A DNA stretch of 64,000 nucleotides from Psammoneis japonica (GCA_008632985.1 QPGO01000137.1:1-64000); one strand, 5' to 3'; positions 1-64,000 are shown, counted from the first letter of the stretch. Numbers and translations: made by a program. The notes: generated by a model not told the origin, from the letters alone.

Positions 1-649
1 AAAAACAGAAGGTTTCATGCTTGTGGACACAGTAATTTGCATGAAGTCCCGAAGCCTTCGAAAGTCATTGCATTCTATTTCATGTGCAAAGACCGCTCGC
101 GAATTTGGTCATTTTGAAAGTGGTCAACCCCAAACCCGCTTCATCTCACCCGTCTGTCTCCGGTCGGGGTCAGGGCAGGGGGGGAGACACAGATGGATTG
201 TTCGAACAGCAGCTGTCCAGACACCCCCCACAGAGAGCAGGCCCTGAGTTTCAGGCAATCATCCAGCTTCTGGTGCTTGCAATGTGCAGTGCTGTGTGCA
301 GGAAGCAGCTCCACACAAACTGTGTGGCCACCATGTGCCAGGATTCTTTGTGCGGAGTTGACAACGGCATTGACTCCATTTTGACAGTGACACAAAGAAT
401 CTGCATGAATTTCCAGCATGAATTTGACAGCAACACCACAGATGGAACCATCATCAATGTGCCAATCATTGCATCACTCATCTCAGCACAAAATGACAAC
501 AAACAATGGCGCTCTCAGAATGAAAAAGCAGCTTGTTCTTTGGTGCCACACACACAAAAGCATGAAAAAGTTGTGCCAATTGTTTCCACTCTGGGGAGAT
601 CAAGACTTTTGGCAGCCCACTTTGTTTGATGCATCACCCCCAGGAGCAA

Positions 650-1500
650 AGCTTCAGAGGCAACACAGTGCAACAAGTGTGTCACTCATCATGGCTCGAA
701 TCATCTTGCTTTCTGCTGCACACAGCTGCCGTCTCAGGTTGAATTGGTGCCCAACCTCAGCAACTGTCATTGTTGGGCAAAACCAATTCTCCACTGCAGT
801 CTCTGCCAAAGTCTCAACCCCACACAAACTTTGGGGAACAGACAGGGCCAAACCTGGTTTGTCACAGACAATGTCTCTTGCCATGCCAGTGGTGCCATTG
901 CATGGTCCCACCAATTGAGCAATGATCATGTTGAGCATCACCCATGCTCCAACACAAATGTGCGTGGAGACAAGTTGGACATCTTTTTTCTGTTGGCTGT
1001 GTTTTCAGCTTGTGCCAGAGCAACGGATTTGCAAAGCCTTCACATGTTCTTGTTGTCGAGTTCTTCTGCTTCAGAGTTGGCTGTGAACAGACACAGCATT
1101 CCACCATTTTCAAATCCCAACTGATGCCACTTGTGCAGACCCATGGAGTGTTGTGAGCATGTGTGTTGTACATTGACCCAATCTGATTGCTTGTGCACAG
1201 TCTCCATCACAAAGCAAGATGCTCTGGAAGGTCACAGAACAACCAGACTGACTCTGGATCATCAGGGTCTGCATGATTGTTTTTCATCAGCTTGATTGCC
1301 ATGTTGAACATTTGGCATGGATTGCATCCATTTTAATCATCATTTTTTGTAAATCCAGCTCATGCTCACAAGCAAATCCCTCCAACTGGTGGCAACTGTC
1401 CAGGATCACCAGCTGCTGACACCACAACAACCCTGCCAATTGCAGTCAACATGGCCCAACTCTTTCTGGTGCACAATGGAGAACTTATCAAAACTGGAAA
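650..1500 (-). mobile_element. Degenerate PIF1-family helicase relic (possibly Helitron-derived)
   Basis: Minus-strand fragments AAGDPGQLPPV (cf. PIF1 GDFxQLPPV) and MMLNM..GPCNGTTGMARDIVC (cf. VML..N..GLxNG..G.V.DIVY). Broken frames; boundaries approximate. Confidence 0.55.
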
Positions 1501-1672
1501 GCTTGAGATCTTGAGTTTTGTCTTGAGCTCAACTGATGTTTTTGTTTGCAAAAGGATGACATCATTTGTCAAAAAGAGGTGCGCCCAGTTCTTCTTTGTG
1601 TGAGTGTGTGGTGGATCTGTGCACATTGTCCATTTGCAAAACACACCCTGCATCCATCCAGGAGTCCTGCAC

Positions 1673-1776
1673 AGCATCATTGCTCATTGAAGAACCCACA
1701 TTGTCAGTTGCTGTGCTTCTGTCTAGCATCATTGCTCATTGAAGAACCCACATTGTCAGTTGCTGTGCTTCTGTCT
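1673..1776. repeat. Perfect 52-bp tandem duplication
   Basis: agcatcattgctcattgaagaacccacattgtcagttgctgtgcttctgtct occurs at 1673-1724 and 1725-1776. Confidence 0.95.
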
Positions 1777-2694
1777 CACAGGCAAAAGCTGGATTTTGTC
1801 TTTTGCAGCAGAAAACCAGGGGTGGTTTGTTGTTTGTTGACCTTGTTGCTTCAAAAATGGAGTGTGCTGGCTCCAAGCATGAACAGCATTGTCACTGGAT
1901 GCTGTGGCACTCCACCCCGTGCAGATTCATGTGCTCCACTCCAAGGGCAATGCTTGGTCAATGAGTGCTTGCATGCAATGCTTGACAAAATTGAGATTGC
2001 CAGGAGAACCCAAGACACAGGGAACAAACATTGCAACAGTGTTTGGTTTCTGGTGGGGGTGAATTTTCTTCTTGTGCTTTCTGGACTTGCCAACACAGAA
2101 TCTGGCAGAGCAACTTCTCACAGAGGAGTGAGGTCTCTTGGCCCTGTCTGAAAGGATGCAAAAACTGTTGGGTCTGTCCAGGCCTCTTGCTTTTGAGTTG
2201 CGCAGCATGTGCATCAAAGACTGTCAGCATTGCAGCACCCCTTGTTTAGAAGCTCATGAACTGTGAGATTTCTTTCTAACTGGTGCCATGTCAGATCCTT
2301 GTCTGTTGGGTTGCACTCTCTGGACAGCAACCTCAAGAGCCACTTGACCCAAGATTGGGCTCTTTTGCAATTTCAAGACATGGCTTTCAGATGTTTTGAG
2401 TGGGGTTGAAAGGCTGGAAGCCAGTGGGTGGTTTTTGCTTGTTGCTGGAAGGAAAATTGTTGTCATCAAAAGAGATTGACTTGCCGATGAGCAGCCTGCC
2501 TGGTGTGAAATTCTTGCAAGGAAACAAAGACTCTTTGCTGTCCTGGAAATGAGAGATTGCATTGAATGTCACATTGAAACATCTGTCAAACAGATTTGAA
2601 GCTGACAACAGCTCCAAAGTCAGCTAGATCCAGGAAATCTGGCACTGCTGCATGAAGGAAAGGAGAAGCTGCCTTGGGGAAATGTCATGCGCAC

Positions 2695-2770
2695 GCCGTT
2701 AAAAGCAGAGGCTTGTCGGAACACATAGTTTGTGTCCCTTGCGTTGGAAACATCCCAAGCGGACATGTTG
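2695..2770 (-). pseudogene. Isolated DUF285/BspA-like repeat fragment
   Basis: MSAWDVSNARDTNYVFRQASAFNG resembles the DUF285 unit (WDVSxVTxMxxMFxxAxxFN). Only one unit is present. Confidence 0.5.
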
Positions 2771-3104
2771 GGAAAAAGTCGCGGCACCGTGGAACATCCC
2801 ACTCATGTGCACACCTTTTCTTGTAGCTGTCTTTATTGAGGGCTATGCGAGCGCGGACGGACCCCAGGACTCGTTCAAGCAGCAGATGATCAGTACAAGA
2901 AACAAATAGGAATTACGTATGCTTAGTCAGCACTCGTTCCTACTAGCACTTAAGTCAGTCTTAACCTCCATTCTCCTTCTTCTTCCTGGACTCACTCTAC
3001 AATCAGCTCACTGTAAAAGAGAGACGCACTTTTCGAGCGCAACGACGATTCTGTAAATGGAAAAAAGGGAAAAACTAACTGCTAGATTGTATTTACTGTT
3101 ATGA

Positions 3105-5243
3105 TTAGTTTTCATCCGCGCTTCCATCTAAACTCGACATCGTTGTCAGACTGACCCTGCTCGATATAGCCGATGCACGGCGAACAGTTCGTTCTTTCCT
3201 TGATTCATGTAGCAAGTGTGTCAGATCTGCAACTTTGCGCCGAAGGCGGAACACTTCTCGACGTAAGCGCACAATTTCGTCGCTCGAAGATTCTGTGTTT
3301 TCTCCCTCAGCTCTGCTGAGTGGGCTTTCCCCTGGAACCACCAATGTATCACCAACGACATCAAGCAAAGCCTCTGTGTTGACATTGCAGGGCTCGACCT
3401 CGGAGAAAGAATGGCCGATATGACGTATGATTCTATCTAGTTCCATCGCCGCAACGCAGCGATCCATTCCAGCGAGCATCAGTATATCAATCACAAAGCC
3501 TTCCTCCGCTTTGCTGATTTGACCATCCGCAAGTATGATTGCCATAACGGCTGTAAGGAGAACCGTCCTAAATGTGTCCGGTATTGAGCGGTCACCTTTG
3601 AGCTTTCTTAGTGTGCTCATATCCTTCGGGTTGGACTGGACGACACTCGTGACCTCGTCGAGTTTCTTCTCTTCCAAAGGAGATCGGTACGTCAGCTCAT
3701 AGTTTGCGCGAACGGCGTCCTTCATCTCTTCACACATTCCTCTACTCGATGCACAGGCTGCCTGTACCATAGCATGCAGAAATATATCATGCAATCGGGC
3801 GCACCAAACGTCACCTGCCTGATAGGCCCAAACGAATTGAGAAATTCCAACTTTTTCCTCTTTGGTGCCATTAATTCGGGGATCAATTTTGGCTCCGGTA
3901 TTACCAGAACGAAGCGGCTCGAATAAGTGAACGCCATAGCTTCTAACGAGGCTTTTGCAAAACTCCAGACCACGCACAGAATTTCCTTGCTTGTTCAAAC
4001 GAGGTGAAAATGTGGCGAACCCAAACACATTCGGTACAATGACCATTAGACATCCACTCACACCACTCTTGGCAATCAAGCCGACCTCAACTGCGAACCT
4101 TCCACTTTGGTCATACATTCCACAGGTCATAGTTTCCGCCAGAACATGTCTGACAACGTCTGCTGGAAAAACCTCCTTCGCCGTAATCGGACAAACACCA
4201 CCATTTGCTAGGGTAGCAGCAGCGACAGCCAGTGCTTCCGTCGTCATCTCGATCGAACAACAGCCAAGGTACACGTCGAGCATCTTGAGAATTTCAACGT
4301 CTCGAGGTAGTCCCCTGCGGCCTTTCAAATTGTAAGCAATGGCAAAATTGTTGTACGCCGTTGCCTTCTCCGATTCAAACGTCTCTTGCGAGAATCCAAC
4401 CTCGATATCGTCACCACTAAGATCACTCCATGTCTGACGAATCCTGTCGATACATTGCTCCCACGTCGATTCTGGGAATCGAGAGGCAAAGAGACCGGCT
4501 GCCATGATAGCTCCGGAGTTGACACTCGCATTAAAGGGCGTTTGCGTATCGGCATCAAGATCTTGAGTATTAAACGGGCGTCCCGCAGGTTCAACTCCTA
4601 TCCATTTGTCAACCTCCTCTTCTCCTTCTGCCTTGAGGCAAAGACCATACGTCACGGGCTTGCTCACACTTTGAATCGAAAATGAAGTTTCATAGTCTCC
4701 GATTGAGAATCTTTGTCCATCTACGCTACATATTGAAAGTCCCCATAAGTCAGGATTTGCATCTCTCAGTATAGGAATGTACTGAGCAGTCTCGCCTTCC
4801 TTGTTGTCTTGCACCATGTAGAAATGATAAGTCATATCGGCCGAGAATGACTTAAAATCAGGGACAACTAGCTCCTCAGAGAAAGCCCTGAGAAACATAC
4901 GAGCAAGTGGAGATACAAACTGAACAAACGTGTAGAAATCCAATTGAACCTTGGCTGCCGTCTCTTGGTCTTCGGGAGTAACTGTGTTGGTAACCTCATC
5001 TCTTTCCAGAGAGCTCAGGCGCAAAGCAACGTCCTGGGAAGGTTCGAATCTTTTGTCTCTCCAAAAGACAATGCCTTCTTCACGCAGCAAGTCAATGACA
5101 TTTCCAATCGTTAGAGACTCTGGAGAGACTCCTCTTTCATCCACCACATACTCGTAGATTTCACGCAAAGCTTCGACTCTGGTGTCCACTTCGGCGCTGC
5201 TCTTTCTCAAAAAAGAATCTTTCGCCAGTGGGCGCGTACTCAT
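3105..5243 (-). CDS. GLS: Glutaminase (712 aa) with C-terminal TerB-like helical region and coiled coil
   Basis: Intact ORF with glutaminase motifs AQYIPIL, SIQSVSKP (catalytic SxxK), NASVNSGAI, TCGMYD, AKSGVSG, SPRLN..GNSVRG. Normal TpA content. Confidence 0.95.
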   Translation of the reverse strand: MSTRPLAKDSFLRKSSAEVDTRVEALREIYEYVVDERGVSPESLTIGNVIDLLREEGIVFWRDKRFEPSQDVALRLSSLERDEVTNTVTPEDQETAAKVQLDFYTFVQFVSPLARMFLRAFSEELVVPDFKSFSADMTYHFYMVQDNKEGETAQYIPILRDANPDLWGLSICSVDGQRFSIGDYETSFSIQSVSKPVTYGLCLKAEGEEEVDKWIGVEPAGRPFNTQDLDADTQTPFNASVNSGAIMAAGLFASRFPESTWEQCIDRIRQTWSDLSGDDIEVGFSQETFESEKATAYNNFAIAYNLKGRRGLPRDVEILKMLDVYLGCCSIEMTTEALAVAAATLANGGVCPITAKEVFPADVVRHVLAETMTCGMYDQSGRFAVEVGLIAKSGVSGCLMVIVPNVFGFATFSPRLNKQGNSVRGLEFCKSLVRSYGVHLFEPLRSGNTGAKIDPRINGTKEEKVGISQFVWAYQAGDVWCARLHDIFLHAMVQAACASSRGMCEEMKDAVRANYELTYRSPLEEKKLDEVTSVVQSNPKDMSTLRKLKGDRSIPDTFRTVLLTAVMAIILADGQISKAEEGFVIDILMLAGMDRCVAAMELDRIIRHIGHSFSEVEPCNVNTEALLDVVGDTLVVPGESPLSRAEGENTESSSDEIVRLRREVFRLRRKVADLTHLLHESRKERTVRRASAISSRVSLTTMSSLDGSADEN

Positions 5244-5964
5244 ATTTTTTCGTTCCTGCTGTCTTCTGACTCTACTACCGGTATGCTTTGAAAAATGAAA
5301 TAACTCAAATCTTTGGATCGGCAGCAGTTCACTGATATAACAATGGCAGATATATCCTCCGTGATCACCTTGTCGTCACCGCAAATTGAAAATAATCACC
5401 GCAACATGTCACCATCCTCCTGGCGGTGGTGCGGTGTAAATGACAGACGGAGCGGTGGGGTGAATAGTAATAGTACGGTATGTAGAAGCATGTGAAAGTG
5501 TGTGCGTGAGGCGCGTTGCACCAGCCGGGCGGCGCGGCGCGGCAGGTCCCCAGGTGGCGTGGGAAAGGTTTGGTTCTCTAGATGATGAAGCAGCAAGTTG
5601 AGCATGTAGTTTCGTGGAGCACTGGAGGAGCTGATCAGCAAGGTGTCTGGTGACAGTGAGAGGACTGAGGCTTTGCAAGACCCACCAGTGCAGCACACAA
5701 GGGTGGTGTCACAGTGTGATGTGGGGTGGGCAAGACCAAAGAAACAGGCAGAGAAGAGGCAGGATGGAGAAAGCTGGGCAGTGTGCGCAGATGGGTGTTG
5801 GAAGGAGGAGTTTGACACCCAAACGGTGGCTGGAGCAGGTGGGTGGGGTGACACATGGGGGTTTTCTTTTGTCGGGTGGCTCTCCAAAGAGGATGTGTTG
5901 CGCCAGCCACAAAGCACAAGGGAGTGCTGGGGTGATCAATGGTGATGAAAGGGGTGAGATGCAC

Positions 5965-6230
5965 GGCCTGTTCTAGCTCCAGGTGATCTGCTTTTCATCA
6001 CGCGAGAGGCCGATTTTCTGTGCAGTTTGGCGCAATTAACTCCTTCAACCTTGATCGTTTTGAAAATCGAAAGGTGAGTGTGCACCCGAAAACACATGCA
6101 CCGGCAAAGTGTGCGCTTGCCCTTCGATTTGGCAAAAAACGGATTTGGAAAAAGTCAGTTGCGCCAAATGCACAAATTTCCAAATGATGGGAATCGAACC
6201 CGTGCGGAGCACCTGGAGCTGGAGCAGGCC
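5965..6230. mobile_element. MITE family 2 (GGCCTGTTCCAG termini), copy 1
   Basis: 21-bp TIRs ggcctgttctagctccaggtg / cacctggagctggagcaggcc; flanks gcac/gcat. Inverted homolog at 60614-60875. Confidence 0.9.
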
Positions 6231-6422
6231 GCATGCCAGCGTTGTTGAGTGAAGTGATCACAGCAGTGCTTCATTGCATTTCACACAGGTGCCACAAAAT
6301 TTCTTCTTGGTGCTTCTGTTTGTTGAGTGGTGTGTCCTCAGCAAAAGGGTTTTGAGTGAGAGAGGCCAGGAGAGCTGCGTGGGAGTGGAGAAGGTTTTGA
6401 GACTGTGCTGAGGGAAGAGGCA

Positions 6423-6608
6423 GAATCGCGCTGTAACAAAAAATGTCAAAAGTTGTTGGACGGATCGCTCAATGAGTGTACCGTAAAATGACACAAAATG
6501 TCGAAAAAATCACGTAGAAATCTACGTGCGCGACATACGACGAGACTCAAAAAACTGTCGATGTCACAGTTCAGCAGTACGAGGTCCCACCTAGACCTGG
6601 AACGCGTC
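6423..6608. mobile_element. MITE family 1, truncated copy (one TIR)
   Basis: Near reverse complement of 29081-29267; ends ...cctagacctggaacgcgtc; keeps many TpA. Confidence 0.85.
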
Positions 6609-9600
6609 GCCAATCATCTGGAGAAAATGGCAAAGAGGCCATTGATGCTGACAACATCAGATGGAGTGGCATTTGTGTCCAAGGAGCAAGAGCAGAAGGA
6701 GGGATGATTGTGACAGGGGTCAGCAGCAGTGCATTTGCAGGGGGGTGCAACAAGCAATCATCGCATCTGGCTGGTGTGCAGCCCCAGGTGGGACTGTGTG
6801 CAACATGGGCCCACAGAGTTCCATGCACAAGCTCTGCAGCTCAACAGATTGGCCAATTGATTCATTTGTTTGACACCCAAATAAGTTGCTGAGTTTGTGG
6901 TGCAATTGCACCTCTTGACACTGGCAGTTTTTGAAAACACATCTGCCCTGCACAGCTCTCAAGACATTTGAAATTTGTGCTGCACAAAAAAAGCAAAAAG
7001 TTTCCAAATGGGTGGCCTGATGACTGCACTGCAAAATGACACCAAAGTCACACAGAAAATGCACGTGTGCAACTTGCAAGGCATCTCAAAAACTGTCAAT
7101 GTCATGGCAGCTCAGCAGCGCACCGGGTCCCAGCACCTGGGGCTGGAGCATGCCTGGCAGAAGTTGGAAGGCACAATTTGTAAAGATGGGGTGGAAAAGG
7201 CAAGATGGTTGTGATGACATGTGACAAGTCTTGAAAAGAGAGGTTTCAACTGGGGCAGCAAGGGAGGGATCAGGGGAGCAATGCAGGGCAGGAGGCTGGT
7301 GTGTGCCAAAGTGTTGGAAAATCCAACAAGAAAGCTGTGGTGATCATGTCAGAAAGTGGCCCACCTGCTGCACAGAGACTGGGCATCAAACAATGGGTGG
7401 GGGGGAGCAAAAGGGGGTTGCTGCTGGAGGAAGTGACAAGGCCACACATCATTGAGCAGCAGAAAGAGTGGGCAAGATGGGTGACAAGGAAGGGGGGCAG
7501 CCCTGGCTGTGTGACAGAGCAGCATCCAACCCCGCCCCCCATCAAAGCAGAGGTGGTGCAGGGTGTGGCAGCAAGGTGCAGGGTGGCAGAGGCCAGGAGC
7601 CCCTGCAACAAGGCATTGGAGGAGCATTTTGCAGTTGCTTTGGGTGGCTTGTTGGGGCAGAGAGGACCACAAGATGATGGGAGCAGGGTTGTTGACATTG
7701 AAGCCATGAACACTGTTGCACCAAGGCATGCATCTGTGGACACTGTCATCTCGGACAGAGTTGCCAAGAGTCTGTCACCTTTCCTGCAATTGATTTTGAG
7801 GATTGTCCCTGCTCCAACCAAGGAAGTTGTGTCTTTGTTCAGACTTCTGTCATGCATGGTGGCACCTCACGAGATGGCCGCCGGTCTCACTCGATTCATG
7901 GCAACAAAGACAGGTTGGAATTTGGTTGGGTGCCTCAACTGCCTGCAAGTCCAACAGCAATGAAGTTGGTGTTTGTGCTCATGATGAAGACAAGGCAAGA
8001 TGGTGGAGAACATTTCAAGGTGCAAAGCACCGGAGACAAACTTCACCCCCCGGAGGATGGCTGCATTCCTTTGGATGAGGATGGCACGCTTCATGACATT
8101 GAGGAGGCAACCCTGGACACTGTTGCATGGTGGAGAATGGCAGACAGCCGCACTCTTGGCATGTCAAGTGTGATCAGTCTGCTCCCGCGCCTCTGGGTCT
8201 TGTCGTTGGCGCCGATGAGCTTGTCGGAAAGAACACTGCTGTGATTGATTCTGGCATCAAGGACGACTGTGAAATCTCTGACGAAGAAGGAATGAAGGGA
8301 GCAGGCTGCATTGGCACCCCAGGACGAAAATGAGCAGTTGTCATGTGCAACAAGAAGGACGGAAGCATTGTCGTGGTGCATGCAGCCCAATGAAGATGGC
8401 TTGCACTGGCGCGAGATTGTCCACAACGAGATGGTCTGTGTGTGAAGGAAGTTCGTCACATCAAGGCCGCTGGGGAACTCGCCAATGAAATGCTTGCCAA
8501 TGCAGACAATGATGAAGTCGAAGTCGTCTCATCGTGGGGGCTCTTCATTGCGACTTCTGGTGTCACCAAGACTGAAATTGCTGGTCTCACAGCACTGGCT
8601 TCTTGACAAACAGTCTGCTGCATTTCTCGAAAGTAATGCAAACAATGCAGTCTAGTTGTTCATGTGGATGTGTTGCCTTGATTTCGCAAATGTGACAATT
8701 GGATTCTCTGCGCAATCCTGGGTTCAGTCTAAAACTGAAATGACACAAGCTTGCATGTGCAATGGAGACAAGCTCCATCACTCATTGGAAGCTTGCAGCA
8801 ACTCGATTTTGTTTGTGTTCTGATGTCTCTTCCATGACCAATTAAACCGCATCAACATTGGCAATTCTCTCACACGAAGCAAGTGCAAATGAATTTTGCT
8901 TTCCCGGAGCCAGGCATTGCATGCAGTGTGCAACACACCCAAGAACGACAGTCACAACTGCTGCATCCCTGCCTTGCAAATGAGACAACCCAACTCAAAC
9001 TTGCCATCATCTACAATGGCATGCTGCAGTGATGTGCTGCACTTGGTGCAAATTTTCATGAATGACTTGGACGTCGAATGTGGGCATGCCCAAAACCAAA
9101 TTTTGAAAATTTCGCAAAGATGTCAACAGCATGATTGCGCTGTCATGTTCTTGTTTGCACGCATGTGGTGCCAGCCACAAACAAAACTCCAAAATTTTTA
9201 TTCAGTTGCTCACAAATTTTTGCAACATCATGGTGCAATGCAAAATGACACAACTCAAGGGTGACAATGGCCCGCGCAACTGGCAAGAGGAGATCGGATG
9301 TCAGCGGGCAGTGCTGAGTCCTTTCAAGTGTGGGTCTGCACAGCACTTGCACACAAAGCGTGTTGAGTGCTTTTTGCCATTTTCCCAGGCTTTGGCCCCC
9401 TTTTTTTGGTGTCAACTCTTTTGTTTTACCAGCCAGCTTGAGTCAGCTCTCTCAGCTCTGGTCAGCCAGGGGTCAAGAGCACAGTGAGTTGAGGTGCTGT
9501 GCCAGCGGCACTTGGTGGCAGCAACAGCAGCGCATTGGCGCCAATGCAGTGCCAGCTGCAACACACAGTGCACAGCATGGTGGTTTCTTTTTTAAACTCA

Positions 9601-9699
9601 GGCACACAGCTTTGTGCATGCTTTCCACCATGCTCAGAGCAGTTTGTGTGCCTCCTGAGGTGTGCACAATGCTGCACGCCAACCAAAAACTTCTCTGAC

Positions 9700-11200: not shown

Positions 11201-11815
11201 TTCCTTGGTCCCCCTTCCATGCCAGATTTCTCCACTGTTGAGCAAACAGGCAAAAAAGCAGTTGGAAGAAACAGAGGGAATCTGTGGATCCAGCAGCTCC
11301 CTGCAGAAAGAACTTGAAGATGAGCTTTGTCAATGACTGAACAACACGCAAATTTTGCGGTTCAGAAAGACCTGGCTGGTTTGGCTGGCTGTGCTCCATT
11401 TTGGTTGTGTCTTTTTTTGTGCGTGCTTCTTTGCTTGTGTTGTTTGCTCATGTTGACAATGGCAAAACCTTGCTCTGCTGTGCCCTGCTCAACAAGAAAC
11501 AAGGAAAGTGAACCATCAGTTTTGTGCATGGACATGTTGAAGGGAGCAATTTGTTGAGCTGCCAAAACAAGTTGACAAAGAAATGACATTTGACAGCAAA
11601 GCCTTTGATGCCTTTGTTGATGCATCAAATGCCACTGCTGTGCAAGATTGATGGAAGGAAGACAAAGATTGGTGCTGATGCAGTCACCTGCATTGACACT
11701 TGACTTTGCAACTCTCCATCCTCATGTGAAAAGGGAACATTTTGTTGTGTGCCATCTTGAAATGCAAACTTTGCTTCCCACAAGTGTGCACTTGAATCTG
11801 GAATCAATGTTGGTT

Positions 11816-20360: not shown

Positions 20361-20367
20361 CTCTTAC

Positions 20368-24264: not shown

Positions 24265-24416
24265 GGCTTTTGTCTTGTTGCAGTGTTGTACCACCCCGTC
24301 GCAAGTGGAGATAGAATACAGTACAGTATGTGTACCGGTAGGGCCCTATGGTTTTGATGTCATGGTGATGTCATGTTCACGTGATGAATTTTTTATATGA
24401 CATGAGTGTCATTTAA

Positions 24417-40097: not shown

Positions 40098-40101
40098 TGG
40101 G

Positions 40102-53200: not shown

Positions 53201-53713
53201 CAGCACATCTGTTCTGCTCTCCTGGGCTACTCAGATCCTCAGCCTAAGCCCCGGTGTCACCATTGCCAACCATCTTCCTGGCATTTTCAACACCGAGGTT
53301 GTGCGCAGCCTCCTTTCCTTTGAGTGGTCAGCCAAGCCTTGAAGAAAGAAGCTCTAAAGGTTTTTTGATGCCCCTCCCAAGACTTGACCTCTGCATATAT
53401 CCTGGCCGTTTCCATTTTTGTCGATCGTGGCACTGCAGTTTATCGCTATAGATACAGGGCTTTAGATTAAACTGCACACTCTATTCTGAGCTCATTCGTC
53501 ATGACACTATCCGGCCAGATATCTCTTACAAAGTCTGAAATTGTCAACAAAATTTGCAAAAGGCAGTCATTCCTTGGTATTAATACCCTGAGGGGAACTG
53601 CTAACTCCGAAGCATTTACTGAACGTACCCAAATGGATAATGGATTTCACACAACATTGCGGCTTGTTGCGCGAAAGTCATATATCAAGAAATCCAGTAT
53701 TGTCGTCCTTCCC

Positions 53714-56095
53714 TTAAGAATCCGCGTTGCCTTCGCCCTCTGACACTTCAGCCTTTAAGGTTTCATCAACCAATGGAATGCCACGATGCGTTTTCTCCGA
53801 AGAATCATGAGTCAACAAGCTGTCGTCGACTGACGACAGGGGAGTTTCGTCACGATCGTCGGCACTCAAAACCGGAAGCTTTTGCTCCTCTCTGTGCATC
53901 GACTCTTCCTTTTCCTCCGCCTCTACTGTTTCTTCTTGCTCAGGATCTTCGAAAATCAAAGACGGAAGTGGGCCACTCACTTCTTGAACAACCCAAAAAG
54001 AATCTGGATGGTATCCGTTGTACATGGTCATCAGAGCTTCATTGAATTGGGACTGGAAGTTATTTAGAGGAATATCATTTGGCACGTTCCTAAACGGATT
54101 CTCCAGCTCACGCGACACTTCGTACAGACCAGTAAAGGCAAGGACCGTAAAGAAATTAAGGCATGCACCAAAAACGATGTTGTTAATGTACGAGAGCATC
54201 AGTATTGGAACAAATACCACCATGAGCACGACATATAAGGACGTAATTTGCGCGTGTGGAAACGGGAAAGGAATGTAGGCAATCTTGCGGGCTTGATTGT
54301 ACCTGTCGGAAAGCATTTGTGAAAAGAAAATGAGAGCGATCGATAGAGGTGGAGAGTGTAGAAAGAATGGCGAGTGAGACCTGAAAGCATGTTGATATCC
54401 ATCACTGACAGAACCGAACACGTTATCATACTCACCCAATCATTCCATCACTGGTGTATTGAAACATCCGACTGACTATCGGAGCACCCACGCTACCTAG
54501 CCCTTTCTGCAAATGCTCTCGAGCAATGAATTCTTGTAACCACATGGTACAAAGTGCCACCTTCGCTAAAGGCCCACGAGCAGTTTGAAGCTGGTCAATT
54601 TCAACATCGGAGACTATAACACAGAAAATTAGTTGAGGATGCGCAAAATACACACAGAAAAAACCAACCAACCACGTTGTTTCTAAACTCGAACAAACAA
54701 AACAACATACCTCCCCCCACTACACGAAAAGGCCGAGCGGCGTTGTACAGAGTCCGCGCCCGTGCTGTGCGTGTGTAGCCAAACAGATACCGCAAGACCA
54801 CCAGGCTGCGGTGAGTCGATTCCCACCCCCCACGAATGTCGGCATCGTAATCGTCAGGATCGACATGAGGCCACGGCGCACCTGGTTCAAACTTGGACAA
54901 TGGACTTTCTGCTTGTTCTAGATCATTTCGAAGGGTGGACAGGGCAACTGCAGATAGCAACGATATCAAATGAGCTGCCTCTTGGAGCAACAAGGAAGGG
55001 TCAAATCGCTCGGTCGGAGCCATGCTACGGATAATTGATGTGCCTTTGGATAATTGCAACGCCGTTGAGCGACTCATATCGTCGTCAATTCTTCTGATTC
55101 TGCGCCCAATGTGTTTGAGCGGTCTTCGAATGGGATCACCTACGGTCCTTAGCGGTTTCCGTATCGGCGCATTGATACTCTGTGTTCGTCTTTGCATCGG
55201 AGCATTTATGCTCTTTTTGGGCCCTCGTATTGACAGGGACTCGAGAGACTCGTTTCGGTCCGATGCTTTTGTGACAATGACTTGTTGGGGTCGCTGTTGT
55301 CGCTGTCTTTGTCGTGACAGCAGCCGCATTCCTCCAAAAGATTTCTTTATACGATGCCGTAGTGTTATTCGAACATCATGTCCTTGTACGCTTTCAATTT
55401 CGTCCAGGTGATCTTCTAAATCTTGTCGCGTCATTTCATTCAATCGTTCTCGCTCCCGCTTGACAGAGGTGGCCTGTGGAAATTGCCCAAAGGATGGTGG
55501 TTGCGTGTACCTATCCGACTGCAAATGAAATGCCGCCAGTTCCATACCAACATCTAACCATTTGGAGTGCATTTGATGAACGACAGTCACTGCAAGAGAG
55601 ATAGTATGAACGATTATGCCATGATTGGGAGGTTAAGACACGCAGACGAACGAACGTACGTACGAACGAACGAGAATGTTCTCGCGCTTACCTGCTTCCC
55701 AATACTGCATTAAAAATACGCCATACATCAGATATATTGTGAATTATAGCAAGATAATAACAGATGTGAGTGCCTTTTACTTTCAATTATCAGTGAATTC
55801 CGAGTTTCGAGTTCATTCTCAACTCGGGACAACAAAAGTACGGTTACCTACTCACGCGGTGATAAGAAAAGGAGGTTTTGAACGTCAATAGAAAGGTAAA
55901 GGAAGCAATCAGTGCACCCATCGGATAGGGGTGGTCGAATATTCTACTCTCGTCGTTATGCAGGTCGAAGAAGTGGAAAAAGATGATGAAAAACACCGTT
56001 GCGATCACGGCGGGACCTGTAGCCTTGAATAAAGCTGACCCATGCAGCCTCAATAGAACTTGAAAGCCAAACGCGCCTCCTCGATACTTTATCAT
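53714..56095 (-). CDS. Bestrophin-like (UPF0187) anion channel; exons 56095-55856, 55704-55692, 55589-54711, 54613-54436, 54302-53714
   Basis: All introns are GT-AG and phase-compatible. Spliced motifs FLLTFKTSFSYHRYWEA, GYNQARKIAYIPFPFPHAQ, ELENPF..PNDIPL. Confidence 0.9.
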
Positions 56096-56284
56096 TGCTG
56101 CTATAGAATGGATCGTACACTCTGCAGGTACAACGATCGTATCGGTATGCGAAATGACGAGTAGGAAGCGCTGTCATTCGCCATTCGCCATTTTCGAATG
56201 TGCAAACCCGTCTCAAATACCCAAGTAGACAGATCGACAGACGGTTTTAGTACATGTTCTACGGGCGGCAGACCTGTTGCCCAC

Positions 56285-56358
56285 CAGAGGTGCATAAATC
56301 GTCTGTTGTCGTTCGCACACGCGCATTCGGGCGACAACAGACGATTTATGCACCTCTG
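56285..56358. mobile_element. 74-bp hAT-type micro-MITE
   Basis: Perfect 27-bp TIRs starting CAG (cagaggtgcataaatcgtctgttgtcg), 20-nt loop, 8-bp TSD TTGCCCAC. Confidence 0.9.
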
Positions 56359-56765
56359 TTGCCCACTCTGGCTTCCAAAAAGACGTCCCCCATGGAAGGG
56401 CAGACTGAAGAGCACGAAGTGAAAATCAAGACAAGTTGCTTGTTGTTGCCTCCTTTTTGTGCTGTCTCCCCAATGGTGCAATTTGTGTCTCAAACACCGC
56501 CTCGTCAACTGCGTTGAATTAGATTTGCTGCTTTTTGACAAACCCTTGCCAAAATGTCCAGACAAATGTGTGTGAACAGTTCAAGACACAAGAGCAAGTT
56601 GTGCGATGATGATGCTCCCTGGAGCATCAAATTCTTCACCTGATTCGAACGTAAAAATCATTTGCAATCCCAAACACTTGGGATTCCTGCCTTGCAACAG
56701 AATTGAAGTGCCTCTTTTGGACTTGCTGTCTTGCATTTTTTGTGACCTTTCACATTTTTTTGGCA

Positions 56766-57163
56766 GACGCGCTCCAGCTCCAGGTGGGACCTCGCGCTGC
56801 TGTGCTGTGACATCAAGAGTTTTTTGGATCGCGTGGCATGTCGTGCACGCAGATTTCTGCGTGTGACATTCTATGAAATTGTTTCATGCTCCCCATTTTG
56901 TGAAGCCAAAGGCTTTCCATTTTCAATGTTTGCGAGAATGAAAATGCTCTGGGTGTGTTCTTTGGTGTCTGAAGAATGCACCCGGGCAAACTGTCAATGA
57001 TGTGCTTCAAGTGTGGAGGAGGAGATGCGTCAGCAAAATTGCCTCTTTTTCTGTTGGCAATGATTCATGTTTTCATTGCTTGATGAATTTGCTGTGGAGC
57101 TTGCACGCAGAATTCTGGGGGCCCAGTGTCACACGGAGTTCCCACCCAGGACTGGAGCCCCTT
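56766..57163. mobile_element. MITE family 1 copy
   Basis: gacgcgctccag ... ctggagcccctt; TSD GGCA. Confidence 0.88.
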
Positions 57164-58160
57164 GGCAGCGGGGGTCACAGCCCCTGCCGCACTCCCGTGC
57201 TCTGTGTTTGGACTTCTGTTGTTGTGACCATTTTGTTGCATGTTCAGACTCATGTGTCACTTTTCTTCTTGGGGTTTCTGTGTGTGCTCAAAGAACTCTT
57301 TGCTTGGTGTGAAGGTGTGTGGCCCAATGTTGTTGGCCTTGAACACCGTGACTTGCTTGTTTGACTTCTTGTCCAGCAGTCGGAGCTCGTCCACTGCTCT
57401 GTCATGGTGTGTCACACAGTGTTTCCATTTGACATCTTGTGGACTGAGGATGTTTGCAATCACATTCTGCAACCCAAGCTTCACGTCACCCCATCCTGGC
57501 ACAGTGCAGTCTTTGTCCAGAGCATCCACTCCTGTGTTGGTGGAAAGGTCTGTCTGTGGACCTTTTTGCTGGGCGCACAACCTGTGCCAACTTCTGGCCA
57601 GCTGCCATGCCAAGGGTGGAGCCATTGCTGTCATCTCATCTGACTCAATGATCTTGCTGCTCTGGCTGATGCTCATCTCTTGGGTCTTGCTTGTCAGTTG
57701 CAACCCATGCTGTGCTTTGCCTCAAGAGCAGTCTTTGGGTGCACATCATTGCCTGGACTGCAGTTTCTCACAAAACTTTTCTTCTTGAGACTCTTGCAGC
57801 AATGATTGTTGCTGTTCTCAATGATCAGATCTCATGTGCAGATTTCTTGAGTTCCTTTTTGCCACTTGCACCCAAATTGGCGTGTTCCTTGGAATTCTTG
57901 ATGAGTCCGTCCAGCAGTTTGTTTCCCAATCCTTTGCTTCTTGAATTGCAATGGACAGTTGTTCAGTGACTCAAGCTCCTGTTGTTTCACTTCAAGCACG
58001 CTCTTCAGAGCCTTGGCCAATGTGTGGAATGAGCACTGACCTCTCACAGAGTCACACGCAAGGGACTGAATCAGCTTCAACAGCCTGATGAGATCATCCT
58101 CATGTTGTCAAAATCTGGGTCTGCCTCAACTCGCTGCCTCATTGGTTTTGTGCTGTGATC

Positions 58161-58549
58161 GACGGGTTCCAGTCCTGGGTGGGACTTTTTGTGACATTTG
58201 CCCCGTAGAATTCTGCGTGCGAGCTCTGCAGTTCGTACTTTGGTCAATGGATGTGTTTGTCTTCGACACAAAACAAACGGCCAAGTTTGCAGTGCATGTG
58301 TCTCTGCATGCACTCGAGGTTTTGGACAGTGCGCCTGCCCCACGCCATTCTCAAGACACTCAAGAATGGCGTAGAAGGAAAAAATGTTAAAAGTTGTTGA
58401 ATGGATCGCCTGACAATTGCACCATAAAATGATGCAAAATTTCGCCAAAATCACGCAGAAATGTGCGTGCGCGACATGCGACGCGATTCAAAAAACTGTC
58501 GATGTCACAGTTCATTGGTGCGAGGTCCCACCTAGACCTGGAACGCGTC
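58161..58549. mobile_element. MITE family 1 copy
   Basis: gacgggttccag ... ctggaacgcgtc; TSD GATC. Confidence 0.93.
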
Positions 58550-58599
58550 GATCATCAAGGATCATGGCAAATGCCTTGTTCTTGTTCTCTTTGAGCTCT

Positions 58600-60610
58600 C
58601 TCATCTTGCCATGGTGGTCTCTGAGTTCTTTTTTGTGCTTTTGTGCTCATGTTCTTTGTTCTCTCACTTGCGACCTGGATCTTCTTCCTTGGCTCTCAAG
58701 GTTTTAAGCGAAGGTTTCTCCATCGAAAAGTCTTGATGCTTCATGTCCTCAAGCAAACAAGCCAGGTGTTTACCTTGGTTGCATTCCTTCTGCATGTGTC
58801 ACACATGCTTTGTTTTCACATCTTCGAACATTGTGTTGTGAGAGTTGCTTTTCATTGACCATGGATGAAACTTCATGTCAGGGATGCAGCAGCTCTCTGG
58901 CTGTCAAACGTCTTCATCTTGGAGCCAGAAGACTTCTTGCAACTCTTGTTGCCACTGCCAATGCCACACTTTTGGTCTTGGCCTTTCTTGTGCAAACTGC
59001 TTGATCCTCTGCTGCTCATTTTTGCAGGCTGCCAACTGTCTCTTTGGGAATGTGGACTTGGGCTGATGAGCAGATCTGATCTTGCTTGTGACTCCACAGA
59101 GTGAATGTTGAACCAATGAGTTTGTGGTGGCAAACAGGAATCTTGTGAAGCTTCCTTTGCACTCACTGTGCTTGTCCTCTGGTTTGCCCAGAAGATTGCT
59201 CAATGCAAACTTTGTTTGACGCCTCTGGGCAGTTGTTCGACGCTTCTCAGCGCCGATGCTGACAGATGTCATGCCAGATGATTCACTCTAAAGAGCAAGA
59301 ACATTGTTTTGAGAACAACAGTTTGATGACAAGAGAAATGCAGTCATCCACTTGTTGGCATCAGGAGCCAAACATCTTGTTGCTTCAGTTGATCGTGGGC
59401 TCTTTGACGCCCACATTCAGCGTGCTCCAACACTTGTCGTTCGATTGTTTGCCAAAATGACGCGAGAGAATTTTCTTGATTTTTGCAATGTCCCACTCAA
59501 GAGACAGCTCAAACAGCAACACTGTTGAATCAATCACATTGGGGTTGGTTTTTGGTGTCAGCTCTGGGTCCCAATTCATTGCTTTTGGCACCTGATGCAC
59601 TGTGTTTTGCATCACATCAAAATTGCTAAATTGTGCTGCTTGAGTTGCATGGTCCGCTTCATTTTGTGAACTTTGTCCTTCATTTTCTTGATCAAGCCAG
59701 AAGACACATTTGCTGCAAAGTCTTGTTGACAAGCACCCCATGTGGTTGAAGGGAATGTCCCCTGCCAGCCAGGCTTGCCATCAGATCTGCTGTGGTGGGT
59801 GGAGGTGATGAGCAAAAAAAAGAAGTGTGCAAAATTTTGGCAACCTTTGAGAGGGCTGCAGCACAGCAACAATGGCCAGTTGGCCCAGCTCTCACCGTTG
59901 AAGTGTCGACTCCCATTTTTTGGGCATGAGGAATTTGTTTCTGGGGTCAGGCCAATCCCAGCTGAGCTTGATTTTCATTTTAAAAAGCCGAAACAGCTCA
60001 AAAAGCTTGGACTCACCCGGGCGACCATCCACATTTTTTTCAAGGCTTTTCTCACCCGGAAAACCTCCCCACATTTTTTCAAGGTCGCCAGCTTTGAAAA
60101 AGATTGCTTGGCTTTTTCAAGCTTTGGAAGGGCTTGAAATTTGCCACATCACATGTGGGCCACAGCGCATTGCTGCGACTGCAGACACGGAGGGAACGCA
60201 GCAGCAACACACGCTGCTGTTGTCGATGTTGCGTTTGGCCGCTCTGGTTGATTTCAAAGGTGCTTGCAGTCTTCACATGGCATTTTTGTTGGGTCGCCTG
60301 AGGCTCTGTCTTTGTCATTGACTCGCGCGGCTGAAATCAAGCTGCATCGGTCCCAATGACCACCAGTCTGGTTCTCAAATCAAGCTGTCATCACTGTGAC
60401 ATCTTCCAGCTCATTGTGCCTGACTTTCCCAGTGCTTTTTTGTCAAATCCTGTTGCGCGCCAATTCCCTGGCATGTGTCTGTGCATTGAAGCTGCTGGTG
60501 CTTGCTTTGGAGCAGCCATGATGGTTCTTCCTTGCCAAGATTGACAAGAAAGTTAGAGGCTTCAAGTTCGACAAACAACAAAGTTTGTGTGCGGTGTGCA
60601 TTGAAGGAAA
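58600..60610 (-). mobile_element. Possible Kolobok/Mutator-like transposase relic
   Basis: KNHHGCSKA (~60510-60535) resembles the NxxGSSxxME motif, followed by SDDS. Very degenerate. Confidence 0.3.
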
Positions 60611-60613
60611 ACA

Positions 60614-60875
60614 GGCCTGTTCCAGCTCCAGGTGCTCCGCGCGGGTTCGATTCCCATCATTTTTGGAAATTTGTGCATTTGGTGCAATTGACTTTTTCCA
60701 AATCCGTTTTTTGCCAAATCGAAGGGCAAGTGCACACTTTGCATGTGTTTTCGGGTGTACACTCACCTTTCGATTTTCGAAACGATCAAAATTGAAGGAG
60801 TTGATTGCGCCAAACTGCACAGAAAATCGGCCTCTCGCGCGATGAAAAGCAGATCACCTGGAGCTGGAACAGGCC
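60614..60875. mobile_element. MITE family 2, copy 2
   Basis: Perfect TIRs ggcctgttccagctccaggtg; TSD AACA. Confidence 0.93.
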
Positions 60876-60992
60876 AACAAGATGAAAGAAGTGCCAAGGT
60901 CAGACATTTTTGTGCTGCAGTTCTGCTCTTGCCACCTCTGGCCAGCATGTCCTTGCTGCACAAAAATCAAATGATTCAGTGCAGTGCAAGCC

Positions 60993-61384
60993 GACGCGCT
61001 CCAGGTCCAGGTGGGACCTCGCACTGCTGAACTGTGACATCCACAGTTTTTTGAATCGCGTCGCATGTCGCGCACGCACATTTCTACGTGATTTTGGCAA
61101 AATTTTGCATCATTTTATGGCACAATTGTCAGGCGATCCATTGAACAACTTTTAACATTTTTTTCTTCTACGCCATTCTCGAGTGTCTTGAGAACGGCGC
61201 AGGGCAGGCGCGTTGTCCAAAACTTCGAGTGCGAACAGAGACACATGTGCCACAAACTTGGCTGTTTGTTTTGTGTTGAAGACAAACACGTCCATCAACC
61301 AGAGCATGAACTGCAGAGCTCGCACGCAGAATTCTGCGGGGCAAATGTCACAAAAAGTCCCACCTGCTGGGACTGGAGCCCGTC
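60993..61384. mobile_element. MITE family 1 copy
   Basis: gacgcgctccaggtccaggtggg ... ctggagcccgtc; TSD AGCC. Confidence 0.93.
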
Positions 61385-64000
61385 AGCCAGCAGAAAGCAG
61401 AGAGCCAAGAGGAGGCTGTGGAGAATGCCAACACGGCCACTCAACAATCTTGACAGGGGGTTTCCAGATGTGTGCAGTGAACACAAGGTCAACAAAAGGA
61501 ACACAGCATGCAAAACAAGTTGTGGTGTGTGAAGTGCTCTCACATTTTGTTCCATTTTGCGAGCTGCTTTGAAAAAGACCACAAGTCATCAAGCTGTGGA
61601 TTGCATCAAAGAAGACTTGCAGTTGAAAAATTAAATTCTGGAGCAGAGTCAAGAACAACAGCCACAACAGCCCCTGAACCATCACATCGACTTGGAGCAA
61701 AAAGGAGCTGCTCATTGCAGCAGCGCAGCGCACATGCATGAGGCTGGCCTGTTCACGCTGAATGTTTCAGTTTGCGCTTCGTGCCTCATTGCAGTGAAGA
61801 GCGCTTGTGATGTGTGAAAGGTGCACGACTTTGGCTTTTTTTTCAAATGCAGTTGGGTCGCATGGCAGCCAAAATTGAAAAAGAGTTGCCAAATTTCTGT
61901 TTCAAATGAAAATGGAAAATGAAGCTTGGCTGGGGTTGGCCTCTCAGACTGAGAAATTTCCTGTTGTAAAAAAAAACAAACAAGGGAACGACAAACATTT
62001 TAGTCCAATTGGTCCATCAGGTTGTGAACTGTTCATTTGGTTGTCTTTGTCACTGCCGCTGTGGCACCAAATCAAATGTGCTGCCACAACTTGAAAAACA
62101 AACAAATTCGATGAACATTCTCAGTCAAGACATTGCGCACTGAACCTCACGCAGATTTCTGCGTGATCATCACAGTGCGTTTTCTGCGCTGGTTGCAATG
62201 GCCATCTGCGGTTGTTTTTGACAACTTCTTTTGATTTGACAACTGTGCAAGTGGCGCTGATTGAACATGCCAAGCAGATGTGACATGTGATGCAAATGAC
62301 ACAGTGAAATGTTGTGCAGATCTTCCCAAAACAGAGCTGTTGCATTTTTGCTCTTCTGTTGAATCACACAAAGTCATTGCACAAGGCAGGCAAACAAGAT
62401 GATTGTGGCACGCCAGCTGTCCTGTGTGCTGATTGAAGTGCGGTGGATTTAACACGCTTGTTTTTGTTTCATTCGCCTGAAGCTCAAGAGGTCAAATTGG
62501 CCTGAGAAGCATGTGCACAAGCTTGACAGTGAATGAAATCACTGCGCAAGTCTAAAATTTTTGTTCTGATCAAAACAGAAATGACGCCAGTGCACTGGTC
62601 AGAGCATTCCTGTTCAAATGGTGTCACTTTTGTTGTCACAAGTTGGAACTTGGCACTTCTGTGCACCGCCATTGTCATGTTGCATGTCATTTGGTCAGCA
62701 ACAACTTCCACATTTTCATGTCTGTCGATGCATGTTTTGTGTTTGTTGTTTGTGGTTTGTCACAGAGATTGCAAAAGCATGGGCTCAAGCTCAAGAAATG
62801 AGCTGGTGTGAAGGGCCACCACGTGAACCCCATTTTGCAAATGTGGGTTGGCCTGCTCATCTTTTTGCTGTCTTTTCTGCGTGTGTTTGAGTGAAGGGAG
62901 AGGTGTTTCTTTGCCATGATGACTGCACCGGCAGCTGAGTTGTCTGAAGAATGTGATGATTTCAAAGAATGTGATGATGTTGTGAATTGCAACTCTAGAT
63001 GCAATGTTGCCAATTGCAATGGCAGTTGAAAAAAATGATGCCGCTGCAAATCGCAATTGCCACAAAACAGGTTGTTCCATTCTGAAGTGGCGTCCACCTT
63101 GTTGCATGACTTCACGGCAGATTGTGCAACACACGAGCATCAACAGATTCAAGGAGGGAATGATGTGAGCCATGCACCAACAAATCCATCCGGAGTGGCT
63201 CAATTTGAACACGGTGAAAAACACTTGAAGGGTCACGAAAATCCACAATCTGATGGACAGATGACAGACCAAATGTTCGCCAAAAAGGTCACAAATCGGC
63301 ATGCATGAAATTGTCCTGAGTCATGCACGCCAAACATTTCTCTGTTGAGGCGACACACCAGCCTGTTTCTTGAACTTGAGCCTGTGACAAAAGGAGGTGC
63401 CATGCAATTGGCTGAAAGACAAACAATTTTTGACCAGCTGGGCTGGAAAAGTTTGTTGTTCATTTGTTTGTTTTTTTTGCAATGGAAGGTCTCAGGAGTT
63501 TCGTTTCTGGGTGCACCTCCGGGTTCCCCACCAAATTTCTGCCATCATTTTCAAAGACCGTGCCGTGGCCATTCACATGGTCAAGGCATGATTTGGGCAG
63601 CTGACAGAGCAACAACGGCACTGCTGCAGAAAACATTGCATCAATGCAACATCAGAGTGAACTCACGGGCATTGCTGGCTCTGACAAGGTGAGCTGGTGA
63701 ACAGATGATCTGTCTTTTGATGTCGCTGTGTGTGTGTTCTCCTGAAGGTGCTCCTGGCTCCAGTGTCTGGGACTGTCGAGGAGAAAGAAGACACCCAAAT
63801 GCCTTCACGTCACTTGGATGGTGTGATTGATTCAAATCTTGTTGGGTTCAGATGCTCCTTGCATGTGCATGACCGGTCCTTGCTTGAACCAGATGGTGCT
63901 GTGAAAAAGCAGATTTCCGTGCCTTCTCCAAGGCATGAATCGACATCATGCACACAACATGTGGCCACCCGACAAAATGCCATCCATCCAAACAGGCTTC

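Follow-up and report, generated by a model that had tools for sequence, protein, structure and literature searches.

The 64,000-nucleotide stretch of Psammoneis japonica analyzed here (GCA_008632985.1, QPGO01000137.1:1-64000, hereafter the window) is divided between gene islands and non-genic DNA from which the dinucleotide TpA (TA) has almost vanished. This loss is very probably the work of a hypermutation process that acts in place, at the level of the DNA, and changes T:A pairs to C:G specifically at 5′-TpA-3′ in the non-genic part of the sequence. As the enzyme behind it we tentatively put forward an adenine deaminase recruited to silent chromatin, and we consider the two-tier explanation as a whole, process and enzyme together, to be reasonably probable.

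The composition results, all of which refer to these 64 kb of one genome, show the signature directly. Window-wide, the observed/expected ratio (O/E) is 0.23 for TA, 0.60 for CG, 1.57 for CA and 1.56 for TG, and the base composition would give about four times the 1021 TpA that were counted. Segmentation on a 300-base sliding TA count delimited TA-poor blocks at 1-2700, 5501-14800, 16701-19950, 24551-31300, 35201-40950, 44201-53300, and 56251-64000, with breaks at 6251-6650 (in the second block) and 28901-29550 (in the fourth), and islands at 2551-5650, 14651-16850, 19801-24700, 40801-44350, and 53151-56400. The TA-poor DNA amounts to about 42 kb, roughly two thirds of the window, and has a TA O/E of 0.05-0.11 (a 10-20-fold depletion), with CG at 0.17-0.65 and TG and CA at 1.6-1.9 each, whereas in the islands TA stands at 0.51-0.69 and CG at about 1.0. 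A first-pass annotation made from the sequence alone had already pointed to the scarcity of TpA at the start of the window and had named five islands with normal TpA. Indeed, a TA at 76 is followed by the next one at 1169, with 9 TAs up to 2600, and all five islands were found by segmentation; four smaller non-genic patches with normal or intermediate TA (6251-6650, 28901-29550, 31351-33400, and 34601-35350) had been missed, and all four correspond to recognizable repeat copies. TA O/E is below 0.10 in 36 of the 64 one-kb bins of the window, compared with 2 of 637 bins in a control. The latter is a convenience set of 80 mostly bacterial metagenome loci retrieved with a 17-sequence glutaminase alignment (33-50% identity), which we used for composition only, none of the loci being usable as a diatom relative. 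From islands to TA-poor DNA, TA falls by 37.8 and CG by 32.8 per 1000 dinucleotides while CA+TG rises by 76.8, so that the gain of TG and CA matches the summed loss of the two self-complementary pyrimidine-purine (YpR) steps. AA/TT shows no depletion (166.9 per 1000 in TA-poor DNA and 159.7 in islands), AT and the other A/T steps are likewise not lost, and AG/CT is not enriched (115.8 vs 117.5). GC-biased gene conversion was rejected as an explanation, since TA alone is lost and no other A/T-containing step.

The TA-poor sequence is reproduced by contigs of a separate DNA run. X1 is a DNA run that contains 95% of the words sampled from 6501-16500, and its contigs, built from 31-letter words and with a summed word depth of about 60-90, cover all 30 bins of positions 1-20000, TA-free stretches included, with 0-4 differences from the window per contig of 1.0-3.6 kb. 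Contigs 108-1702 and 1747-2782 lie over the first TA-poor block with 1 difference each, and contigs 6582-8595, 8597-12197, and 12487-13770 lie in the second with 4, 2, and 0, respectively. Only accurate reads give contigs of this kind, which makes a long-read miscall at a modified base unlikely. At 11 single-copy sites in 20 kb, X1 uniformly has another letter than the window; 5 of these are CpG transitions and 1 is TG in the window and TA in X1, and these fixed differences suggest that the X1 data differ from the data behind the window. The summed word depth, which is not a copy number, is 60-91 in 17 TA-poor bins and 59.5-78 in gene bins, and most of the TA-poor DNA assembles as unique sequence. 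A further set of contigs, X2, sits on the two gene islands of positions 1-20000 (3082-5375 over the glutaminase island, with 0 differences, and 14958-16526 over the island with the 497-amino-acid open reading frame) and not over the TA-poor blocks, where absent cover is not evidence of silence; none of the runs listed is recorded as RNA.

The direction of the change can be read from repeat copies. Two direct repeats with 94% identity, 4.36 kb apart, enclose an open reading frame (ORF) at 31860-32366 on the minus strand that has 17 matches to RT-RNaseH-integrase polyproteins (44-53% identity over about 65 residues), and we read the ensemble as a degenerate Ty3/gypsy-like long terminal repeat (LTR) element, whose LTRs would have been identical at insertion. 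A Pfam match to RT_RNaseH in the element falls just below threshold (24.0 bits for a cut-off of 24.8), and the scan of 38 of its 52 ORFs of at least 45 amino acids, namely those of at least 50, gave nothing beyond that same match. The two LTRs differ by 20 events. In 10 of them the 3′ LTR has TA where the 5′ LTR has TG or CA, with no case of the reverse, and in 6 one copy has TG and the other CA; the remainder are 2 CG-type changes and 2 other transitions, with no transversions. A difference of TG against CA can be derived from one hit per copy on an ancestral TA, and although an origin from CG is possible the CGs are intact; counted in this way, a change from A/T to G/C at TA explains 16 of the 20 events. 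After Poisson correction, the 22 converted sites among 38 TA sites correspond to about 0.86 conversions per site per copy, compared with 0.0064 per base for other changes (4 over about 311 other bases per copy), a ratio of about 135 per dinucleotide that is an indirect estimate from sequence divergence. The extent of conversion is unequal between the LTRs (16 of 19 inferred ancestral TAs in the 5′ copy and 6 of 19 in the 3′ copy; Fisher p = 0.0025), and the central 2 kb of the element is TA-normal, with a GC content of 0.40, while its ends are converted. At the scale of kilobases, then, the process acts in patches.

A second polarized comparison comes from a family of miniature inverted-repeat transposable elements (MITEs). 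Its summed word depth in X1 is about 75,000, compared with about 65 for single-copy DNA, and the copies may number on the order of a thousand, depth not being a copy number. Where the full-length copy at 29080-29470 has TA, the copies at 60992-61396 and 58147-58550 have TG or CA at 20 and 21 sites, respectively, with the reverse at 1 site each, and 19-23 CpGs are common to the compared copies; 87% of TA and 19% of CG has been lost. The partial copy at 6422-6609 differs from the one at 29080 at 6 positions, 4 of which are TG or CA in the former and TA in the latter, and 4 of its 7 listed variant sites read TG or CA in the window but TA in most of the family's read depth. Young insertions thus seem to arrive with TA and to lose it progressively, given that the TA-normal patches are recognizable repeat copies. 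TA conversion also outruns CpG decay, to judge from the MITE losses and the intact CpGs of the LTRs. These three kinds of comparison, between LTRs, between MITE copies, and between a copy and its family majority, bear out the proposal of the first-pass annotation that A changes to G at TpA on both strands. Contigs of a third set, X3 (34-154 nucleotides), cover only 6422-6608 within positions 1-20000, absent cover elsewhere again not being evidence of silence; X3 is maybe a small-RNA library, in which case it would hint at small RNAs from the MITE.

Two familiar processes leave dinucleotide footprints of this general kind, and the first-pass annotation was right that neither explains the loss of TpA. 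Fungal repeat-induced point mutation, known as RIP, is likewise a transition hypermutation, by which repeated or mobile DNA is degraded where it stands, with a footprint left in its dinucleotides. However, it changes C to T mainly at CpA, so that TpA is created and the DNA becomes AT-rich, whereas here TpA is destroyed and G+C rises; it also depends on duplication, while most of the depleted DNA here assembles as unique. RIP was therefore rejected: its direction is the opposite, TA is ancestral in the MITE majority and in the younger copies, and the double differences of TG against CA cannot arise by it. The decay of CpG through 5-methylcytosine (5mC) is closer, as it also turns a self-complementary YpR step into TG or CA, on each strand independently and in silent DNA, and it operates in the same blocks (CG O/E 0.04-0.65); the affected DNA has lost CpG as well, the usual mark of cytosine methylation, and may be methylated. 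This second process is present, but it cannot remove TpA (the 37.8 per 1000), TA is lost where CpG is intact, and TA conversion precedes CpG loss.

The residual TAs carry information on sequence context. Relative to islands, their density in TA-poor DNA is 0 for ATAT (0 occurrences vs 49), 0.004 for ATAC, 0.025 for GTAC and ATAG, 0.058 for ATAA, 0.076 for CTAC, 0.13 for GTAA, 0.19 for CTAA, 0.22 for CTAG, and 0.36 for TTAA. An additive model in which the rate of each adenine is set by its own 3′ neighbor, in the order T > C >> G > A, fits these values reasonably. Trinucleotide gains are +15.3 for TGC and +10.9 for CAC, +10.1 for TGT and +6.8 for CAT, and +5.8 for TGA and +11.9 for CAA. Among the polarized events, a pyrimidine lies 3′ of the hit adenine in 14 of 16 informative cases (p = 0.004); these come from three comparisons, the other 3 of 6 having been dropped for common ancestry with those used. 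The targeted adenine thus prefers a 3′ pyrimidine (5′-T-A-Y-3′). Along the TA-poor DNA we found no strand-coordinated clustering of TG vs CA (runs ratio 0.993, z = −0.66), whereas other reverse-complement dinucleotide pairs show mild clustering, and we conclude that the strands are hit independently, without strand-coordinated processivity.

The islands hold the recognizable genes and are exempt from the process. With 8 ORFs pooled (3406 codons), the TA O/E in islands reaches 0.66 across codon junctions; codon positions 2-3 give 0.58, and the 5.95 kb of island DNA outside ORFs give 0.65. Because TA is normal at synonymous and at non-coding island positions, the islands are exempt rather than rescued by selection on the proteins. 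Both strands are spared in the islands, together with several hundred flanking bases outside the X2 contigs, and on these grounds we rejected transcription-coupled repair of a TpA lesion as sufficient by itself. The closest named homologs of the island genes are diatom sequences: the glutaminase is 55% identical to that of Epithemia and 50% to that of Nitzschia (unnamed sequences reach 70%), and the named full-length matches of HSP70 with at least 60% identity are nearly all from diatoms, at 64-66% (Cyclotella, Thalassiosira, Mediolabrus, Corethron, Attheya, and Skeletonema), with Parmales at 61%; the database contained no near-identical protein.

We propose that the process would act throughout silent, CpG-decaying non-genic DNA, with genes and a few hundred flanking bases excluded, and that it would do so site by site, with no coordination between strands and with a preference for TAY. 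A hit on the adenine of the top strand would give TpG and a hit on that of the bottom strand CpA. The rate would be about two orders of magnitude above that of other substitutions and also above that of CpG decay, so that new MITEs and the LTR element would arrive TA-rich and then be converted, and old non-genic DNA would end almost free of TA. Our tentative candidate for the enzyme is a nucleic-acid adenine deaminase, TadA/ADAT2-like or with another deaminase fold, which may be recruited to silent chromatin and would turn adenine in DNA into inosine, to be copied as G. We favor an adenine deaminase because the change is from A to G and because the obligatory 5′ T and the 3′ pyrimidine resemble the context of TadA/ADAT, whose native substrate is U33-A34-C35 (U-A-C). 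These enzymes and the TadA-derived adenine base editors convert A to inosine with U or T directly 5′, in a native context that resembles T-A-Y; unlike the putative enzyme, the natural ones act on tRNA, and the 3′ base preferred here is T, then C. A further lead, and a lead only, comes from Iyer et al. (2011; PMC3239186), who list deaminases that are restricted to stramenopiles and carry fused SAM and tudor domains.

The first-pass annotation knew of no described system of this kind, but one has since come to light. In full-text literature searches we found one matching description, a preprint on the chlorarachniophyte Bigelowiella natans (Mettrop et al., 2026; bioRxiv 10.64898/2026.01.13.699255), and none linking TpA depletion to diatoms. 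According to its text, mutation in two integrated viral regions ran about 1000-fold faster than elsewhere in mutation-accumulation lines, where 20 of 20 and 210 of 211 changes were A-to-G or T-to-C, all of these on TpA; its authors propose an ADAT2-like deaminase as a candidate. The signature in our window is, by this analogy, the same: A-to-G and T-to-C changes exclusively at TpA that give TpG and CpA, regional confinement, a suspected adenine deaminase, and, as a long-term footprint, TpA depletion with CpA/TpG enrichment, which in B. natans lies in clusters, some of them with transposable element (TE) domains. The corresponding features found here are transitions without transversions, most of them at TpA (in the LTR pair), sharply bounded regions, and spared genes. 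There are also differences. B. natans belongs to the Rhizaria, whereas the closest named homologs of the present genes are from diatoms, and the targets there, as the preprint describes them, are two viral inserts and 124 clusters, with a 1.8-fold TpA depletion in the region derived from nucleocytoplasmic large DNA viruses (NCLDV), while here every non-genic block is depleted 10-20-fold. The co-occurring CpG decay, the 3′-pyrimidine preference, and the site-independent choice of strand that we describe were not found in text passages of the preprint, figures and supplements aside.

The same process could also run on another chemistry, although we consider this unlikely, namely a base modification at the palindromic TpA instead of adenine deamination, analogous to 5mC at CpG. 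A dioxygenase of the TET/JBP type might oxidize thymine to 5-hydroxymethyluracil (5hmU) or 5-formyluracil, which mispairs with G, or a symmetric modification of adenine might decay to a G-like base. The independent, unclustered hits on the two strands are what the decay of a symmetrically marked palindromic dinucleotide would give, and TA loss co-localizes with CpG decay. In dinoflagellates, moreover, TpA and TpC are the preferred sites at which 5hmU takes the place of T, and T-to-C transitions result from 5-formyluracil. To our knowledge, however, no modified base is known at TpA in diatoms, and the 3′-pyrimidine preference is simplest when expressed relative to adenine, even if it can be rewritten as R-T-A for thymine.

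Adenine deamination was one of two mechanisms raised in the first-pass annotation. The other, error-prone repair or translesion synthesis of the DNA polymerase eta type recruited to silent chromatin, did not hold up and is very unlikely. The signature of this polymerase, A to G at WA (W being A or T), does include TA, but it should also deplete AA and enrich AG/CT, and the counts given above show neither; in the LTR pair, besides, 16 of 20 events fall at TA, without transversions. Selection against TA in non-genic DNA, be it through a TA-cutting nuclease, cryptic TATA or poly(A) signals, or stop codons, is very improbable too. A near-zero TA O/E could in principle reflect a banned word, yet young insertions in the same DNA are TA-rich and lose TA gradually, it is functional DNA (genes, promoters, and untranslated regions) that keeps TA, and in B. 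natans the text of the preprint reports the change de novo in mutation-accumulation lines (Mettrop et al., 2026). A sequencing or assembly artefact seems highly improbable; under it, long reads would give G or C for a modified base at TpA (and for 5mC at CpG), and the assembly would take over the error. Long-read basecallers do make transition-type miscalls at methylated motifs, and the “losses” of TA and CG share their regions. Nevertheless, in X1, the set of other reads available for the check for TA at these sites that the first-pass annotation had suggested (its platform is not on record), the contigs instead reproduce the TA-poor DNA; the paralogs differ by TG vs CA plus many ordinary substitutions, and TA-rich MITE copies stand within TA-poor DNA. 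Finally, ADAR-like A-to-I editing of transcripts from repeats, which would then be reverse-transcribed and reinserted, is scarcely credible: retroelements are present and ADARs are described as preferring a 5′ U (bioRxiv 10.64898/2026.01.13.699255), but LTRs that are identical at insertion differ almost only by TA conversions, MITEs of DNA-transposon type and DNA that assembles as unique are affected, and there are no strand-coordinated clusters. The disfavored 3′ G also speaks against editing of this kind. ADARs favor a 3′ G. The comparison extends to ADAR/APOBEC hyper-editing in general, which is also a deaminase-driven hypermutation of mobile elements but works on RNA or single-stranded intermediates and leaves strand-coordinated clusters, while here the changes are post-insertion, on DNA, and unclustered.

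Returning to TpA hypermutation by a putative deaminase, what it targets differs in part from the first description, in which the affected DNA was TE-derived and the process repeat-targeted. This is supported insofar as MITE copies and the LTR element have been converted. On the other hand, the depleted compartment is all the non-genic DNA of the window, most of it unique, only 23% of the TA-poor DNA has a paralog within the window, and it is the youngest repeats that have mutated least and are still TA-rich. No TE domain was found in the ORFs of TA-poor DNA (Pfam scan of 141 of the 157 stop-to-stop ORFs of at least 110 amino acids; the 16 unscanned ones lie in gene islands, and most of these were scanned as start-to-stop ORFs). 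The scan's real matches were limited to MgtE, which lies in an island, and to RT_RNaseH, which lies inside the LTR element where TA is normal; five further Pfam matches, with E-values of 0.0027-0.0085, were rejected because they lie below curated cut-offs. In the 15 of 44 intra-window alignments that span at least 150 columns, we counted 102 differences of TG vs CA, 42 of TA vs TG, 43 of TA vs CA, and 97 of CG type, along with 179 other transitions and 281 transversions. The largest paralogous pair is a 2.7-kb direct duplication (segments A and B), in which CA vs TG accounts for 47 of the 105 adjacent double differences and every other type occurs at most 5 times. A third partial copy, of the 3′ part of the duplication, is located at 17316-17682. 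Segment A ends at 14417, ahead of the ORF at 14824-16317, and segment B ends at 20324, reaching the ORF at 20305-21321; both genes are on the plus strand and are unrelated.

Several points weigh against our interpretation and should be kept in mind. The sample is small, as are the polarized sets: an LTR offers 19 TA sites, a MITE copy about 23, and the informative events number 16. The tetranucleotide and trinucleotide analyses take islands that are mostly coding as the ancestral baseline, of which the analysis of polarized events is independent. The CA vs TG doubles of segments A and B can equally be derived from an ancestral CG, and the same pair has 89 other transitions and 135 transversions. 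X1, whose platform has no record, may share the organism or the sample with the assembly. With respect to the enzyme, the preferred 3′ base is T and not the C of the native TadA context.

The coordinates of all these features are gathered in the table, and some of them call for comment. TAA and TAG are nearly absent in the TA-poor blocks, where long spurious ORFs abound and often overlap on both strands, TA-free DNA having few stop codons; the window holds 46 ORFs of at least 150 amino acids, and gene finders would over-predict in TA-poor DNA. A stretch at 45700-46700 has a GC content of 0.60 and internal repeats with units of about 160-240 bp, as well as a tandem array (54 bp) at 46492-46644. 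Several frames are open on each strand, and the stretch could represent a repetitive gene rich in Thr, Pro, and Ala or just stop-poor, TA-free DNA. A 52-bp unit is found in perfect tandem duplication at 1673-1776, within TA-poor DNA, and its perfection marks it as a recent event. Among the island genes, the ORFs at 40952-42088 (378 amino acids) and 42082-42873 (263 amino acids) overlap by 7 bases in different frames, have no Pfam match, and may belong to a single gene interrupted by a short intron or a frameshift. The X2 contig over the 497-amino-acid ORF starts at 14958, inside the ORF as listed, and the true start codon may lie downstream of 14824. Scans of the window with Rfam (gathering threshold) and for tRNAs gave no match.

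Table. Features of the 64,000-nucleotide window (TIR, terminal inverted repeat; aa, amino acids; strand left empty where none is assigned)
Feature	Position	Strand	Evidence and remarks
TA-poor non-genic block	1-2700		TA O/E 0.05, CG 0.17, TG 1.78, CA 1.88
Island with glutaminase ORF 3105-5243 (322 bits)	2820-5500	-	ORF and domain match, segmentation
TA-poor block	5501-14650		TA O/E 0.05-0.08, CG 0.24-0.57; interrupted by MITE fragment 6422-6609
Partial MITE copy	6422-6609	-	97% identity to 29080-29267
Paralogous segment A	11821-14417	+	79% identity to 17717-20324; TA-poor in both copies
Island with uncharacterized 497-aa ORF 14824-16317	14651-16850	+	ORF, segmentation
TA-poor block	16851-19800		Includes paralogous segment B (17717-20324)
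Paralogous segment B	17717-20324		Direct duplication, 5.9 kb apart from A
Island	19801-24700		GGACT-like ORF 20305-21321 (+); HSP70 22372-24294 (-), 644 bits
TA-poor block	24701-28900		TA O/E 0.10, CG 0.64
Full-length MITE copy, about 391 bp	29080-29470	+	TIR starts GACGCGTTCCAG; TA-normal patch in TA-poor DNA
5′ LTR of putative degenerate Ty3/gypsy-like element	30508-30831	+	21 CpGs retained; conversion at 16 of 19 inferred ancestral TAs
LTR-element interior	31351-33400	-	TA O/E 0.65, GC 0.40; ORF 31860-32366 (-) matches RT-RNaseH-integrase
3′ LTR, same element	34870-35194	+	20 CpGs retained; conversion at 6 of 19 inferred ancestral TAs
TA-poor block	35351-40800		TA O/E 0.07; mutated MITE-related copy 40105-40499 inside
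Other MITE copies	40105-40499, 56764-57160, 58147-58550, 60992-61396; fragment 35247-35330		Intra-window alignment
Island	40801-44350		ORFs 40952-42088 and 42082-42873 (+), no Pfam match; MgtE fragment 43524-43940 (-)
TA-poor block	44351-53150		TA O/E 0.05, CG 0.41; GC-rich repeated stretch 45800-46650 inside
Island	53151-56400	-	Bestrophin-like ORF 53714-54439; ORF 54601-55590
TA-poor block	56401-64000		Mutated MITE copies 56764-57160, 58147-58550, 60992-61396

A bolder reading, which we regard as a long shot, is that TpA is a second, CpG-like marked dinucleotide in silent diatom chromatin, perhaps throughout the stramenopiles, alveolates, and Rhizaria (SAR), and part of an ancient and widespread system of genome defence or heterochromatin that has gone unnoticed. 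Both strands of TpA would then be marked or open to a chromatin-recruited deaminase, and the decay would be faster than that of 5mC and would have rewritten the greater part of the non-genic genome, with transposons erased beyond recognition.

By analogy with B. natans, the window would represent a second major lineage, at saturation, for a barely described kind of hypermutation, which would then not be peculiar to a single alga or to viral inserts. Mutational erasure of one dinucleotide from all silent DNA is rare, and TpA hypermutation brings new properties that can be tested: the T-A-Y context, the strand-independent hits, the exclusion from transcription units, and the coincidence with CpG decay. 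A second lineage also allows phylogenetic profiling, in which deaminase-fold or base-modifying genes common to both lineages and absent from genomes without the footprint can be sought. If true, a natural enzyme that makes A-to-G changes in the double-stranded DNA of chromatin would be of interest to base editing. For the organism itself, the process would explain the scarcity of recognizable transposon remnants in most of the non-genic DNA here, and it may be a form of genome defence that has been overlooked.

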